Positions 14,886 through 34,451 of a stretch of 64,000 bases of DNA are shown here, in pieces. Source of the DNA: Escherichia phage HMD-6; the sequence record PQ505080.1. The stretch is one strand, 5' to 3'. The translations under genes were made by a program, and so were the position numbers. Each line of letters opens with the position of its first letter. Positions within the stretch are counted from its first letter, which is position 1. Under the pieces are notes generated by a model. It had not been told where the DNA came from and did not search any database. It saw only the letters and a program-made list of their open reading frames with translations.

Positions 14886-15770
14886 ATGCCAAGCAATATA
14901 GTTGATGAAAAAGACCTGTACAAGCCTCAAGAGGTTAAATCTCCAAAGGCTGAAAAGGCAGAACAGCAAACTGAAAGCGATGTAAAGTACACTATGTTTG
15001 TCAGCGGTCTTAACTATGGTGGTCGCAATACGGAGATGAAGGGTAAAAACTTTACTAACGATCTTGCCATCATCTTCGATCAGATTGAGAACTACTCTTT
15101 CAAACATACTGTTGATAAGACTGATTTTGCGGTGGAAGATAAATCTACCCTGTCAGACCACGCTGTAATTAAAGATGGTGTATTTTCTTTTACTGGTAGG
15201 GTAAATACATCACCACATATAATCTATGAGCAAAACTACATTGACAGGAATACTGACTCTAAAAACCCTGCAGCATCTATGCGACCTGGCGCTGCACTGG
15301 AGGCTTTGACTGAGATCATTAATAAGCGCCAGTTGGTTTCTTTGGTTACCGAGGAAAGACTCCTTGAGAACTACATCATAACCAGCCTTTCTGCCAACAA
15401 GTCTGTTGGTGAAGGTGCTGCGATGGTGTTTGATGTAGAACTTACAGAGTTCCGCACATTCTACTTGAACAAGGTTGTTAATGCAACTGTATACAGCAAC
15501 CCTAAGAAAGTAGGCAAGACCCAGCAAAAAGGTGCTGTCAACGACTGTAAGAATGGCAGTAACGTAGGTAACAAGAGGGACACAGGGGCATTTGCAGACA
15601 CTGCATCCACAAATGCCGCAGAAGAGTGGCAGCCATACAAATCTATGATGTGGACGGATGAAAACGGTGTTACCCAATCTGCTGCTGATTGGTATTATCA
15701 GGAATATGGAAGACCTTCTACCATAGTCCCATCTGAGCAGGGAAACTACAACAAAGTTAACGGAAAATAA
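14886..15770 (+). CDS. hypothetical tail/baseplate protein
   Basis: ATG 14886, 5 nt after GGAG; the in-frame track start 14859 would sit at the predicted transcription start; first gene after the tape measure gene. Confidence 0.45.
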   Translation: MPSNIVDEKDLYKPQEVKSPKAEKAEQQTESDVKYTMFVSGLNYGGRNTEMKGKNFTNDLAIIFDQIENYSFKHTVDKTDFAVEDKSTLSDHAVIKDGVFSFTGRVNTSPHIIYEQNYIDRNTDSKNPAASMRPGAALEALTEIINKRQLVSLVTEERLLENYIITSLSANKSVGEGAAMVFDVELTEFRTFYLNKVVNATVYSNPKKVGKTQQKGAVNDCKNGSNVGNKRDTGAFADTASTNAAEEWQPYKSMMWTDENGVTQSAADWYYQEYGRPSTIVPSEQGNYNKVNGK

Positions 15771-15783
15771 GGGGGAGCGTGTA

Positions 15784-16164
15784 ATGGAACTTAAAGATTG
15801 GTGCATAATCACCTTTGTGTGGGACATTGACGGCTTTCCTGATCAAACCATGCGTGTTGTTTTAGACAATGAGACGTATGAAATGCGTATGCAATGGAAT
15901 GAGAGGGATGAGTCCTGGTGGTTATCTCTTGGTCCGGTAGGTGACAGTCCTTTAGTAACCAGAAAAGTAACAGCTTGTCAAGATATTCTAGACGGACTGC
16001 ATTACAGAGACGATTTACCGAAAGGTAGATTGATGGTGCTGTCGTTTAAAGACGATCAATATTGGGGACGGGTTGGAAGATACAACCTTGGAGCAAGATC
16101 TGAGCTGCAACTTGTATACGGTACCCCAGTTGATCTTTACAAGGAACAGCAAGGGTTAGAATAA
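15784..16164 (+). CDS. hypothetical tail/baseplate protein
   Basis: 126-aa ORF with RBS AAGGGGGAG. Confidence 0.45.
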   Translation: MELKDWCIITFVWDIDGFPDQTMRVVLDNETYEMRMQWNERDESWWLSLGPVGDSPLVTRKVTACQDILDGLHYRDDLPKGRLMVLSFKDDQYWGRVGRYNLGARSELQLVYGTPVDLYKEQQGLE

Positions 16165-32262: not shown

Positions 32263-33753
32263 GTGGCTAAGTATGGATTGACAGAGGCTGGTTTCGTTAT
32301 ACCAACTCTAAATGACCTGATCGTTGAAACTAAGCAAAGCCTGATCCGTGCTTTTGGCGAAAACTTCAACGTACAAAGTAACTCCGTTGCAGATAAGCTG
32401 ACCACTATCTTCAACGAGCGAGAGTATCAACTTATTCTTATGGCAGCATCTGTATACGCATCGCAGACGCTGTATGGGGCAGAAGGTATTTACCTTGATG
32501 AACTTCTTGGAAGGCAAGGTATTTACCGGAGAGGCCGTTCTAAATCATCAGGTACTTGCCAGTTGACAATTAACACAACTGTCCCGTACAATATGATTTA
32601 TGATTCCAAAACCTACACGCTGGACAGTGGCAACTTTGTTCTTAGCAGCGACGTGCAGGTGGCTGGAAATCTTATTGCTCACAGAATAAACGCTCCAGAT
32701 CTAAGAATTGGTAAATACAACTTTCAAATTACCAACCAGGCAGATGGAAGTATCAAAACAAAAAGTCTGGTTTTAACAGATAAGTCTCTGGACTCTTCTG
32801 ATTTACCAAGCTTTTACGGCGAGATTAAGCAATTCATTGTAGATAATACAACCTTGTTGAACGACGATCTAATTCAGATAGATATGTTGACAGGAACGTT
32901 GTGGATAGGATACAATTCGAATCTTGATCAAGTTGGGCTTAATAGCAGAGTAGATTTCAGAGTATCCCCGATTGTAGGTGAAAGAACTATCACCCTGGAT
33001 GTTATCGCTAACGAGGCAGGTGAGCTGTCAAGAGAGGCAGAAACTGTAACAACAATGTCGCCTACTCCAAGCGGATTTATCAAACTTACCAACCGAGAAA
33101 GATTCAATGATGGCAGGGATGTTGAGAAGGACTCAGAGTATCGCTTAAGAGCTTCCAGCACTAAGCAGTTGACATCTAAAGCTACTCGCCCTGCAATCCT
33201 TAGCGCTGTGAGCGAAGTGAAAGGTGTTGAGAAAGTAAGAGTGTTCTCTAACAACACCGATAAAACAGATGCGAAAGGTATACCACCTTACAAGTTTCAA
33301 GTGGTAGTGTTCGGTGGTGCAACAGAGGATATTTGTCAAGCGCTGTATCAAACCATAGCTTGCACAAATAGAACTTATGGGAATATCTTCTACGATATTA
33401 CCACATCAGACGGTCAGACTGAAAGGATTTATTATTCTAAGGCAAACACTTACCGCCTGGATATGAGAATTACCTACTCAGGTGCTGCGCTTTCTACTAC
33501 CGAAAAAGATGCCATTACAGAGGCTCTTTTGCAAGTTGTTAACGGCTTAGATGTTGCCGATACGTTGTATAATATCCAATTGGTAGGTGCTGCATCGGCT
33601 GCTGTGTCAATAGGCAGATTTAATAGACTGGTAATTCAAGTTAAACCAGTAGGAGCTTCTGATGAAGCTTACACTACAAACGATATTGTTGCGAACATGA
33701 CCGAGGTATTTGACCTCGACGAAAGTAATATAACTTTCCAACAAACTATTTAA
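32263..33753 (+). CDS. baseplate wedge protein, gp6/P2 gpJ-like
   Basis: 496 aa; GTG start 6 nt after GGAGGAG; N-terminal region resembles Baseplate_J-type proteins; followed by a gpI-like gene. Confidence 0.55.
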   Translation: MAKYGLTEAGFVIPTLNDLIVETKQSLIRAFGENFNVQSNSVADKLTTIFNEREYQLILMAASVYASQTLYGAEGIYLDELLGRQGIYRRGRSKSSGTCQLTINTTVPYNMIYDSKTYTLDSGNFVLSSDVQVAGNLIAHRINAPDLRIGKYNFQITNQADGSIKTKSLVLTDKSLDSSDLPSFYGEIKQFIVDNTTLLNDDLIQIDMLTGTLWIGYNSNLDQVGLNSRVDFRVSPIVGERTITLDVIANEAGELSREAETVTTMSPTPSGFIKLTNRERFNDGRDVEKDSEYRLRASSTKQLTSKATRPAILSAVSEVKGVEKVRVFSNNTDKTDAKGIPPYKFQVVVFGGATEDICQALYQTIACTNRTYGNIFYDITTSDGQTERIYYSKANTYRLDMRITYSGAALSTTEKDAITEALLQVVNGLDVADTLYNIQLVGAASAAVSIGRFNRLVIQVKPVGASDEAYTTNDIVANMTEVFDLDESNITFQQTI

Positions 33754-33764
33754 GGCGGCGAGAT

Positions 33765-34451
33765 ATGGCAGAGATTAAGTCGGATGTCAACCACATCCAC
33801 ACTCTGCCAGATTTTGTTCAGGGAGGTCTTGACTACCTGCCTGGAGATTTTCTGGCTGAGAAGGTTAATTTAGTCACATTCTTAACCGTGTACCTTAAAA
33901 GGTTGGAGAATGTTGATAAGATGCTGGTAGGTTTGGCTGAAGGAAGACTGCTTAACAATGCCAGCGGAAGATACCTTGACGAAGTTGGTAATCAACTTGG
34001 TATTCTTCGGAATGGGCTTTCAGATGCGGATTTTCGTGCTACCCTAGTTATTCAGCAAGCAGCAGCATCAAGGGGCGGGACTCGCGAAGATGTCATCTCC
34101 ACATTGCGACAATTGTTCGGAAGAGATAATTTCGATACGTGGAAAGGTGACAACTTCAGATTTGACATAAATATTAGGAAAACTTGCTTTGACATATTAC
34201 GGTCCATAGACCAGATCTTAGATATGCTGCCATTGCCTTGTCATTTGCGTCTTACAGAATCGCAAGGGCAAGCTTTTGGTTTTGAAGGGGACTCCACAGC
34301 TCTTGGCTTCGGATCAGTATGGGAAGAAAACCAGTTCGGAGTTGGTGGGCTGGCTACTTTGCTGTATGTTCCTGACGTAAGACCTGATTGGGACACCACA
34401 ACTATTTATTGTGAAAGTATTACAGTAAACGCAACTAGGCAGGAGGGTTAA
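33765..34451 (+). CDS. baseplate wedge protein, P2 gpI / Mu gp48-like (putative)
   Basis: 228 aa; LDYLPGDFLAEK ... GRYLDEVGNQLGILRNGLSDADFR fits the tail-protein-I pattern; directly after the J-like gene. Confidence 0.45.
   Translation: MAEIKSDVNHIHTLPDFVQGGLDYLPGDFLAEKVNLVTFLTVYLKRLENVDKMLVGLAEGRLLNNASGRYLDEVGNQLGILRNGLSDADFRATLVIQQAAASRGGTREDVISTLRQLFGRDNFDTWKGDNFRFDINIRKTCFDILRSIDQILDMLPLPCHLRLTESQGQAFGFEGDSTALGFGSVWEENQFGVGGLATLLYVPDVRPDWDTTTIYCESITVNATRQEG

Follow-up and report, generated by a model that had tools for sequence, protein, structure and literature searches.

A siphovirus-type tail-tip module at a fibre-gene hot spot in the baseplate locus of an rV5-like myovirus

The window analysed here is a stretch of 64,000 nucleotides from Escherichia phage HMD-6 (PQ505080.1), and our subject is its baseplate locus (14886-34451), in particular four adjacent genes at 26750-32157 that together resemble the tail tip of a siphovirus and that we call the tip module. 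The source is an rV5-like Vequintavirus, that is, an E. coli myovirus with a sheathed, contractile tail: at 90-99% nucleotide identity, 14886-34451 is matched by 127 phage records, nearly all of them Vequintavirus, and 110 of the 127 cover at least 80% of the region. Phage EmilHeitz (Bas49) has a curated annotation that runs colinear with the window. We rejected an assembly artefact or a chimeric contig, as the junctions are common to more than 110 independent genomes. A sequence-only reading of this DNA had described a chimeric baseplate, in which myovirus-type spike and wedge genes are split by a single fibre cassette of about 14 kb carrying lambda K/J-like tip genes. All of its open reading frames were recovered on the plus strand with the same coordinates, and the parts of the locus described below lie on that strand as well.

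A four-gene tip module and its siphovirus relatives

The module opens with a gene for a distal tail protein (Dit) of 196 aa (26750-27340), which takes the role of lambda gpM, is of the T5 pb9 type and matches phrog_1302, 'distal tail protein' (E 3.7e-49). A profile built from 86 representatives of the family matches solved Dits over nearly their full length (8hqz_H, E 1.9e-5; T5 pb9 4jmq, E 0.002). The second gene (27342-27893) is predicted to encode a gpL-like tail-tip hub protein of 183 aa, counted from the conserved ATG at 27342; the mechanically called frame starts from a TTG at 27327 and gives 188 aa. This assignment rests on the predicted fold, since the family profile, searched against PDB and Pfam, found nothing beyond one weak match to the DUF2163 family (E 0.015). 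A few homologues are themselves named DUF2163, a hub-protein family, by their sources.

The third gene (27893-28318) encodes a 141-aa DUF6950 protein with an NlpC/P60 fold, comparable to the C-terminal domain of lambda gpK and to RcGTA g14; its ATG lies at 27893, while the mechanical frame from 27881 gives 145 aa. It is a single domain and lacks the MPN domain that is specific to lambda. Across 89 sequences, Asp36-Cys37 is invariant and no histidine is conserved, so that a complete Cys-His set is missing; a motif alignment made by eye places Thr112 at the histidine position of the lambda K motif 'NHAAIY'. An hhalign comparison of a shallow DUF6950 alignment with lambda K aligned only the 'QxGD' motif, at a probability of 1%, and phmmer searches of the 196-, 188- and 145-aa proteins against PDB sequences returned no match.

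The last and largest gene (28318-32157) encodes a gpJ/megatron-like protein of 1279 aa, with matches to Pfam Phage_Tail_Tip (E 2.4e-38), Ig_J_second (E 1.2e-30) and Ig_J, and to phrog_31 (E 1.7e-164), which spans residues 143-1137. It also matches the solved lambda J (E 9.6e-28, residues 666-850 and 844-990), and for its rV5 equivalent, gp37, HHpred was reported to find hub structures of the Mu gp44 type (PMC3606486). The chain begins with a hub part at the N-terminus and continues through FN3/Ig domains, a coiled coil whose length varies and a tip fibre to a genus-specific C-terminal domain, the last 160 residues being essentially confined to Vequintavirus. Alleles differ in length by about 80 aa and fall to 31-62% identity only in the coiled coil (residues ~650-960), while conservation is 98-100% in the hub part and in residues 1001-1279. 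What varies seems to be the length of the fibre shaft and not the receptor-binding end.

Terminators and promoter-like sites bracket exactly these four genes. Upstream, an intrinsic terminator at 26659-26678 (8-bp stem with 7 GC pairs, followed by a T run) ends the preceding fibre unit, and a weak promoter-like site follows at 26703-26731, matching the sigma-70 consensus at 9 of 12 positions; a PhagePromoter prediction in Gotham lies about 12 nt upstream of the equivalent site. Downstream, the module ends in a terminator at 32164-32185 (9-bp stem and T run), and the wedge genes are preceded by a promoter-like site at 32201-32229 (10 of 12 positions, extended -10 TG), for which PhagePromoter calls the same site in Gotham. 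The Gotham GenBank record annotates terminator and promoter pairs independently at both of these flanks, and together with a hairpin at 14790-14811 the two terminators are the strong ones found. Promoter-like matches as such number 34 over the whole region against 32.9 expected in shuffled sequence, and they are meaningful only by their intergenic placement. Within the module, genes 2-4 overlap by 1 nt each, as read from the sequence, and no open reading frame lies between the K-like and J-like genes that could represent gpI. The order is thus Dit, gpL-like, NlpC/P60-fold and J-like protein. The module does not follow a non-contractile tape measure gene or end a tail tube: it lies beyond a terminator, 12 kb downstream of the sole tape measure gene, in the interval from the sheath-initiator to the wedge genes.

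The same four genes, in the same order and with near sizes, are found in the Queuovirinae siphoviruses of the genera Seuratvirus and Nonagvirus. In Seurat, gp16-gp19 come after the tape measure gene and comprise a distal tail protein and a further tail protein, both of 194 aa, a DUF6950 protein of 138 aa and the central tail fibre J of 1040 aa (194/194/138/1040 aa against 196/183/141/1279 aa in the window), with start/stop overlaps that are equally tight; KS_A8 has the order of Seurat and a DUF6950 protein of 144 aa. When the 196-aa and 145-aa proteins were searched by tblastn, the best matches after Vequintavirus were siphoviruses of about 60 kb, namely Seurat, KS_A8, SLUR26, Greed, 9g, PY54 and Vid5. 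The J-like protein shares 55% identity with Seurat J within residues 48-758 and 50% within 869-1124, which includes the N-terminal region that forms the hub, and the smaller proteins share 40% (gpL-like), about 45% (DUF6950) and 31-33% (Dit, full length) with the siphovirus copies. The settings are different: whereas the Seurat module adjoins the tape measure gene of a non-contractile tail, that of the window lies amid contractile baseplate genes with a terminator and promoter of its own. The window J also has a longer, length-variable coiled coil and the genus-specific C-terminal 160 aa, and it lacks the hydrophobic N-terminal segment of Seurat J. Residues 1-50 of the latter are rich in Ala, Gly and Ile and include 1 charged residue, with a grand average of hydropathy (GRAVY) of 1.30 and 2.11 in the best 19-residue window, whereas residues 1-43 of the former are shorter and polar (GRAVY 0.10, best 19-residue window 0.31, 8 charged residues).

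The gene transfer agent of Rhodobacter capsulatus, RcGTA, shows the same four-gene plan, and here the roles are known from the solved particle: g12 is the Dit, g13 the hub, g14 a peptidase of about 150 aa of the NlpC/P60 type and g15 the megatron (Bardy et al. 2020; PMC7296036). The N-terminal segment of the megatron forms an iris that plugs the tail channel and has been proposed to insert into the membrane (PMC7296036). While the RcGTA complex ends a real tail tube and gates the release of DNA, the module of the window has no associated tube and the segment equivalent to the iris is polar. The loss of the hydrophobic N-terminal segment of J would suit a tip that has given up the gating or conduction of DNA. 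A Cys cluster like that of the RcGTA hub protein (PMC7296036) is not evident in the gpL-like sequence of the window.

Compared with the lambda series M-L-K-I-J, the Dit of the window is of the two-domain T5 pb9 type (lambda gpM has 109 aa), the K-like protein is without the MPN domain and gpI is missing; Seurat, too, is without MPN and gpI. BLASTP of the three small module proteins against lambda M, L and K gave no match, and for this reason 'lambda-like' is right in kind but does not denote close kinship. The kinds given by the sequence-only reading, with minor tail proteins, an NlpC/P60 K-like protein and a gpJ-like protein, therefore hold, while the nearest kin are of the Seuratvirus/RcGTA type and not lambda. 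This tip type, which lacks gpI and in which only the NlpC/P60 domain is left of the K-like protein, is the best comparison.

The module is present at a coverage of at least 80% in 113 phage records, all of them rV5-like. SPLA5a, phiA009, nieznany and phi92 lack it and keep the flanking core genes, and among the myovirus relatives examined it is found only in Vequintavirus. A divergent metagenomic rV5-like lineage, L014, carries it at the same site. There, identity to the window is 93% for the wedge protein, 92% for the sheath initiator, 84% for Dit and 87% for the gpL-like protein, and only 58% for DUF6950 (L014:10001-10426 compared with 27893-28318); the sequences suggest an allelic replacement of the DUF6950 gene inside the module of that lineage. 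Against EmilHeitz, dN/dS is 0-0.064 for the four module genes (0.025 for Dit), as for core genes, and the module is under purifying selection. The simplest history would be a single acquisition by the ancestor of Vequintavirus from a Seuratvirus-like siphovirus of the Queuovirinae. RefSeq labels the genes individually ('distal tail protein / tail protein / central tail fiber J'), so that a piecemeal annotation already exists; we found no paper describing the four as a whole siphovirus tip module.

Host-dependent requirement in the relative Bas54

Transposon sequencing of the Vequintavirus Bas54 has been reported in a preprint (10.1101/2025.11.20.689424), and its locus tags could be mapped to the window via the GenBank record: bas54_0028-0031 are the four module genes, and bas54_0024-0027 correspond to 17852-26320. 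On E. coli K-12, insertions hit 48 of 50 TA sites in 0028, 17 of 18 in 0030 and 180 of 221 in 0031, all three graded non-essential, and 28 of 35 in 0029, graded intermediate, while 0019-0025 and 0032-0039 are essential (10.1101/2025.11.20.689424). Because the four genes tolerate insertions on K-12 and the flanking baseplate genes do not, the module is accessory and not a structural part of the baseplate. The notion of a chimeric baseplate was in this respect overstated.

On the uropathogenic strain CFE311, the picture is reversed. Mean counts for 0028-0031 drop from 84.9, 53.1, 38.2 and 86.0 on K-12 to 0, 0.6, 0 and 0 (log2 fold changes of -5.1 to -6.4, adjusted p = 0), and insertions in 0024-0027 rise by +3.7 to +6.5 log2 fold change (10.1101/2025.11.20.689424). 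The per-site sheet shows zeros over the end of 0031 on CFE311. On a second clinical isolate, CFE303, the per-site counts of 0028-0031 are the same as on K-12. We took this result from the per-site counts because the sheet labelled for it ('Data S6' in Extended Data Table 8, titled 'resampling K-12 vs CFE303') duplicates the command line and the numbers of the CFE311 run. The insertions tolerated on CFE311 fall in the anchor, the 865-aa protein, the large fibre and even the sheath-initiator homologue, which rises from 0 to 92 mean reads; these last probably fall within the C-terminal extension of that protein, where the upstream fibre set may dock.

The module thus serves adsorption as a host-specific accessory: K-12 and CFE303 can be infected without it, CFE311 requires it, and there the upstream fibre set is dispensable. 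This agrees with the authors of the preprint, who say only that which of the lateral fibre genes are conditionally essential differs from strain to strain (10.1101/2025.11.20.689424). At least its largest product reaches the particle, as rV5 gp37, the equivalent of the J-like protein, was detected in virions (PMC3606486). RBPseg notes a resemblance of the Vequintavirinae fibre to central tail fibres. On the evidence of homology, colinearity, distribution, selection and the host-dependent need for it in a close relative, the module is an expressed homologue of a siphovirus tip that is dispensable for infective particles. A degenerate relic was also considered; purifying selection and the requirement on CFE311 speak against it, and we rejected it.

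The baseplate core and the gap between sheath initiator and wedge

The module is embedded in a complete set of myovirus genes. The tape measure protein of the contractile tail (12438-14777; Pfam TMP_3, E 5.2e-18) is followed by the terminator hairpin at 14790-14811. The tail tube initiator (14859-15770; Pfam Dit_like, E 1.5e-22; phrog_5197) is annotated as such in EmilHeitz, where, as in other relatives, its start corresponds to 14886, the first coordinate of the sequence-only reading, and is a homologue of phi92 gp135, whose role is that of tube initiator (PMC13450770). It is followed by a baseplate plug of the Pam3 gp18/phi92 gp136 type (15784-16164; Pfam Pam3_gp18, E 8.2e-19), the gp27-like baseplate hub (16164-17162; phrog_196 'baseplate hub', E 2.6e-83) and a central spike of the phi92 spike/P2 gpV type (17162-17839; Pfam PF18352, the phi92 spike's N-terminal domain, E 1.4e-9). 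The gp25/W-like sheath initiator (17852-18568; 238 aa) carries a C-terminal extension; phrog_120 covers its residues 6-116 (E 2.7e-21), and it is homologous to phi92 gp139 (E 4e-17), the sheath initiator by cryo-EM in a 2026 study (PMC13450770). Pfam gave no match to the window protein itself, while the L014 homologue, 92% identical, has Pfam Sheath_initiator; relaxed Pfam scans of the sheath initiator, the gpI-like protein, the Dit and the J N-terminus yielded only sub-threshold DUF2612 (E 0.24) and Phage-tail_3 (E 0.099).

On the far side of the module, the gp6/P2 gpJ-like wedge protein (32263-33753; Pfam Baseplate_J, E 2.1e-9; phrog_6, E 6.2e-45) is a homologue of phi92 gp145, and its Bas54 counterpart is essential on K-12. 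A second wedge protein of 228 aa in the role of gp7/P2 gpI (33765-34451; phrog_4056) is a homologue of phi92 gp146 (29% identity, E 2e-29); in the phi92 cryo-EM structure, gp145 and gp146 build the wedge as a heterotrimer (PMC13450770). The phi92 baseplate therefore shares with the window a homologous tube initiator, plug, hub, spike, sheath initiator and wedge, and its core is likewise interrupted, by gp140-gp144; unlike the window, phi92 has no Dit/L/K/J-like module, and its own gap holds an endosialidase and other tailspikes. The identities that had been read from sequence for the spike, the gp25/W-like, the gp6/J-like and the gpI-like proteins are thereby borne out by profile and homology searches (PF18352, phrog_120, Baseplate_J and gp146), and so is the separation of the first pair from the second. 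In the window, 13.7 kb lie between the gp25-like and gp6-like genes, and the contiguous order spike/gp25/gp6/gp7 is not found. In P2 and Mu, the spike, gp25-like, gp6-like and gp7-like genes adjoin.

The upstream part of this gap (18578-26652) holds a fibre set. Its first gene encodes a fibre anchor or adaptor (18578-19246; Pfam Tail_spike_N, E 2.1e-10), the C-terminal half of which is homologous to phi92 gp140 (42% identity); the gene is essential in Bas54 on K-12. The conserved 865-aa 'tail protein' that follows (19248-21845; phrog_2871, E 0) is likely a fibre scaffold or an enzyme, and its gene is graded 'Intermediate' in the Bas54 transposon screen. The 1479-aa lateral fibre (21881-26320; phrog_6578, phrog_1419) has a Tail_spike_N head (Pfam, E 1.2e-9) and is allelic across the genus, with alleles of 1272/1273 aa in MaxBurger and L014. 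A 110-aa protein (26320-26652; phrog_1361) is tied to the 1479-aa allele: its gene is absent from MaxTheCat and MaxBurger, both of which have the shorter fibre allele (~1272 aa) with a Peptidase_S74 end, and the product is probably an allele-specific fibre chaperone. In the Tail_spike_N domain shared by anchor and fibre, this set resembles the branched tailspike adaptors of CBA120 (TSP1-4) and G7C (gp63.1/gp66); the likeness is limited to the upstream set, and the tip module does not share it.

The wedge protein served to find relatives for a synteny comparison. The gap measures 2.5-8 kb in SPLA5a, phiA009, nieznany and phi92 and contains fibre genes. The Seunavirus SPLA5a, whose sheath initiator is 70% identical to that of the window, has an anchor, a 929-aa tail protein and a colanidase; the 929-aa protein corresponds to the 865-aa protein at 33% identity over the full length (E 1e-166). 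The Plateaulakevirus phiA009 of Aeromonas has one 825-aa protein, which was tried as a homologue of the 865-aa protein and turned out on comparison to be unrelated, and the Phapecoctavirus nieznany has about seven genes. For the Septuagintavirus W70, a table of virion proteins lists the same PHROG families under the consecutive tags W70_113-119, and judged by this numbering its wedge and sheath-initiator genes appear to be adjacent. With the gap filled in these relatives and apparently closed in W70, the lineage repeatedly places fibre genes at the junction of sheath initiator and wedge. As the 865-aa protein and the anchor are shared with sister genera, 18578-26652 is partly inherited and not a fresh acquisition.

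The gap is consequently a lineage-wide hot spot for fibre genes and not one 14-kb cassette, as the sequence-only reading had it: relatives show this order for 18578-26652, an observation that the reading itself had named as refuting, while 26750-32157 remains a discrete, Vequintavirus-specific addition. The division by terminator and promoter pairs, taken by that reading as a sign of modular acquisition, is real, and a siphovirus-like unit has indeed been acquired, within the limits of 26750-32157.

Beyond the wedge lie further fibre genes: a lateral fibre with an N4 gp65-like TIM-barrel/deacetylase domain (34451-36523; Pfam TIM-barrel_NCTSP, E 2.6e-80), which a 2026 preprint links to the NGR glycan receptor, and two paralogous short tail fibres with a chaperone (36536-39635). 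Unlike the tip module, all of these are essential in Bas54 on K-12. Two observations stand apart. Compared with EmilHeitz, the window has an insertion of 1.65 kb (9907-11554) between the tail tube and tail-assembly-chaperone genes, with an open reading frame (9951-11576, plus strand) for a 541-aa HNH homing endonuclease (phrog_559, E 1e-110). Moreover, this region of an rV5-like E. coli phage is matched at 91-94% identity by 18 GenBank records (MG0656xx) labelled 'Campylobacter phage' (host C. jejuni), and the identity makes that host label look doubtful.

A transferred tip and its alternatives

Taken as a whole, we consider it probable that the gap is a fibre hot spot holding an imported, complete four-gene siphovirus tip module that serves as an optional, host-specific adsorption device. 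In such a device, a Dit hexamer, a gpL-like trimer and a J trimer would assemble into a stand-alone tip complex as in siphoviruses, with the NlpC/P60-like protein as an assembly factor or minor component; the complex would dock onto the baseplate of the contractile tail, and the conserved, genus-specific C-terminal domain of J would bind a surface receptor. The composition of the complex, its docking site, the binding of a receptor and the direction of transfer are what we infer from these comparisons. More tentatively, and with a good deal of reserve, we propose that the phage mounts this tip fully assembled, as a Dit ring, a gpL-like trimer and a J trimer with its central fibre: a second, self-contained machine for receptor recognition, possibly coaxial around the spike. 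If true, the particle would physically unite two tail architectures, and a complex that evolved to end a tube and gate DNA would have been turned into a detachable sensor of host range.

Several points weigh against the reading of an imported tip. The transposon data come from a preprint and concern the relative Bas54, not HMD-6, and insertions in module genes 1-3 may be polar on J, for which reason the requirement on CFE311 stands for the unit and not gene by gene. The J-like protein is the sole module protein reported in virions, and a search of the supplements of the rV5 paper for gp37-gp40 found nothing. Cryo-EM of the Bas49/Bas54 baseplate resolved three proximal fibres only, none of them assigned to the J-like protein. 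No second tape measure or tube gene accompanies the module. In lambda, the tape measure protein comes first, and the Dit (gpM) is added to the tip only afterwards. An enzymatic role of the NlpC/P60-like protein is doubtful because the conserved catalytic histidine is missing, and the direction of transfer is read from distribution.

Alternatively, only the J-like protein might be a virion fibre, with the Dit-, gpL- and NlpC/P60-like proteins acting as its assembly factors or carried along as dispensable passengers, and the effect on CFE311 might be polar on J, which is likely enough for transposons in a tightly coupled four-gene unit. No other module protein has been reported in rV5 virions, and lambda gpK is usually seen as an assembly factor and not as a major virion component; RcGTA g14, too, is needed for tail formation and was not confidently located in the particle (PMC7296036). 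We think this explanation unlikely. The small genes are under purifying selection as strong as that on J (dN/dS 0-0.064), their products have stayed full-length and colinear since the split from Seuratvirus, and all solved siphovirus tips have Dit and gpL-like proteins as structural partners of the J hub. A more specific geometry would place a single Dit6-L3-J3 complex on the tail axis beneath the hub and around the spike, from where it must open or detach on contraction. The C6/C3 symmetry of Dit, hub and J, as inferred from the RcGTA, lambda and T5 structures, suits the axis and not the six-fold periphery; the loss of the channel-plugging J segment would be expected if the channel were otherwise occupied, and an axial cap could well be dispensable, as the module is. 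Such density is not reported for Bas49/Bas54, however, phi92-type baseplates are complete without the module, and the apex of the spike is thought to need exposure for piercing. This coaxial arrangement is wholly conjectural, and we regard it as improbable.

The remaining alternatives fare worse. That the whole of 18578-32157 was acquired as one cassette, with the baseplate itself chimeric and the K/J-like proteins integral to it, would be in line with the adjoining spike, gp25-, gp6- and gp7-like genes of P2 and Mu, with the consecutive numbering of the homologues in W70 (W70_113-119) and with the subdivision of the region by terminators. It is very improbable all the same, as synteny and transposon data both contradict it: the same gap holds fibre genes in four other genera, the 865-aa protein is vertically shared with Seunavirus (33% full-length identity), and the four tip genes tolerate insertions on K-12 where the flanking baseplate genes do not. 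The requirement on CFE311 could also reflect evasion of a host defence, for example as a decoy for systems that sense tail tips, and not receptor binding. Defence systems of CFE311 do make Bas54 0063 and 0140 conditionally essential, and Tai systems are defences that target central tail fibres (PMC11364771). All four proteins, however, are structural tip homologues and the J-like protein is in virions, and on the same host the upstream fibre genes are relaxed in turn, a pattern that marks alternative devices for receptor binding, and the authors of the preprint concur in this view; we find evasion scarcely credible as an explanation.

Finally, we would like to place the imported tip module into the context of rV5-like phages, which rank among the coliphages of broad host range that are most often isolated and are candidates for therapy, and whose approximately nine fibre genes have roles described as 'far from clear' (BASEL paper, PMC8594841). 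Viewed as a module, four separately annotated genes become one testable unit, and the joint drop-out of four adjacent Bas54 genes on one clinical isolate finds an explanation. The view also raises a structural question: how does a complex that caps a tube and holds a tape measure protein assemble and dock when it has neither? The finding extends the known horizontal exchange of adsorption modules and J-like proteins and does not open a new category. It implies that whole multi-protein substructures of the tail, and not just receptor-binding domains, can cross between tail morphotypes, which is relevant to the engineering of phage host range.

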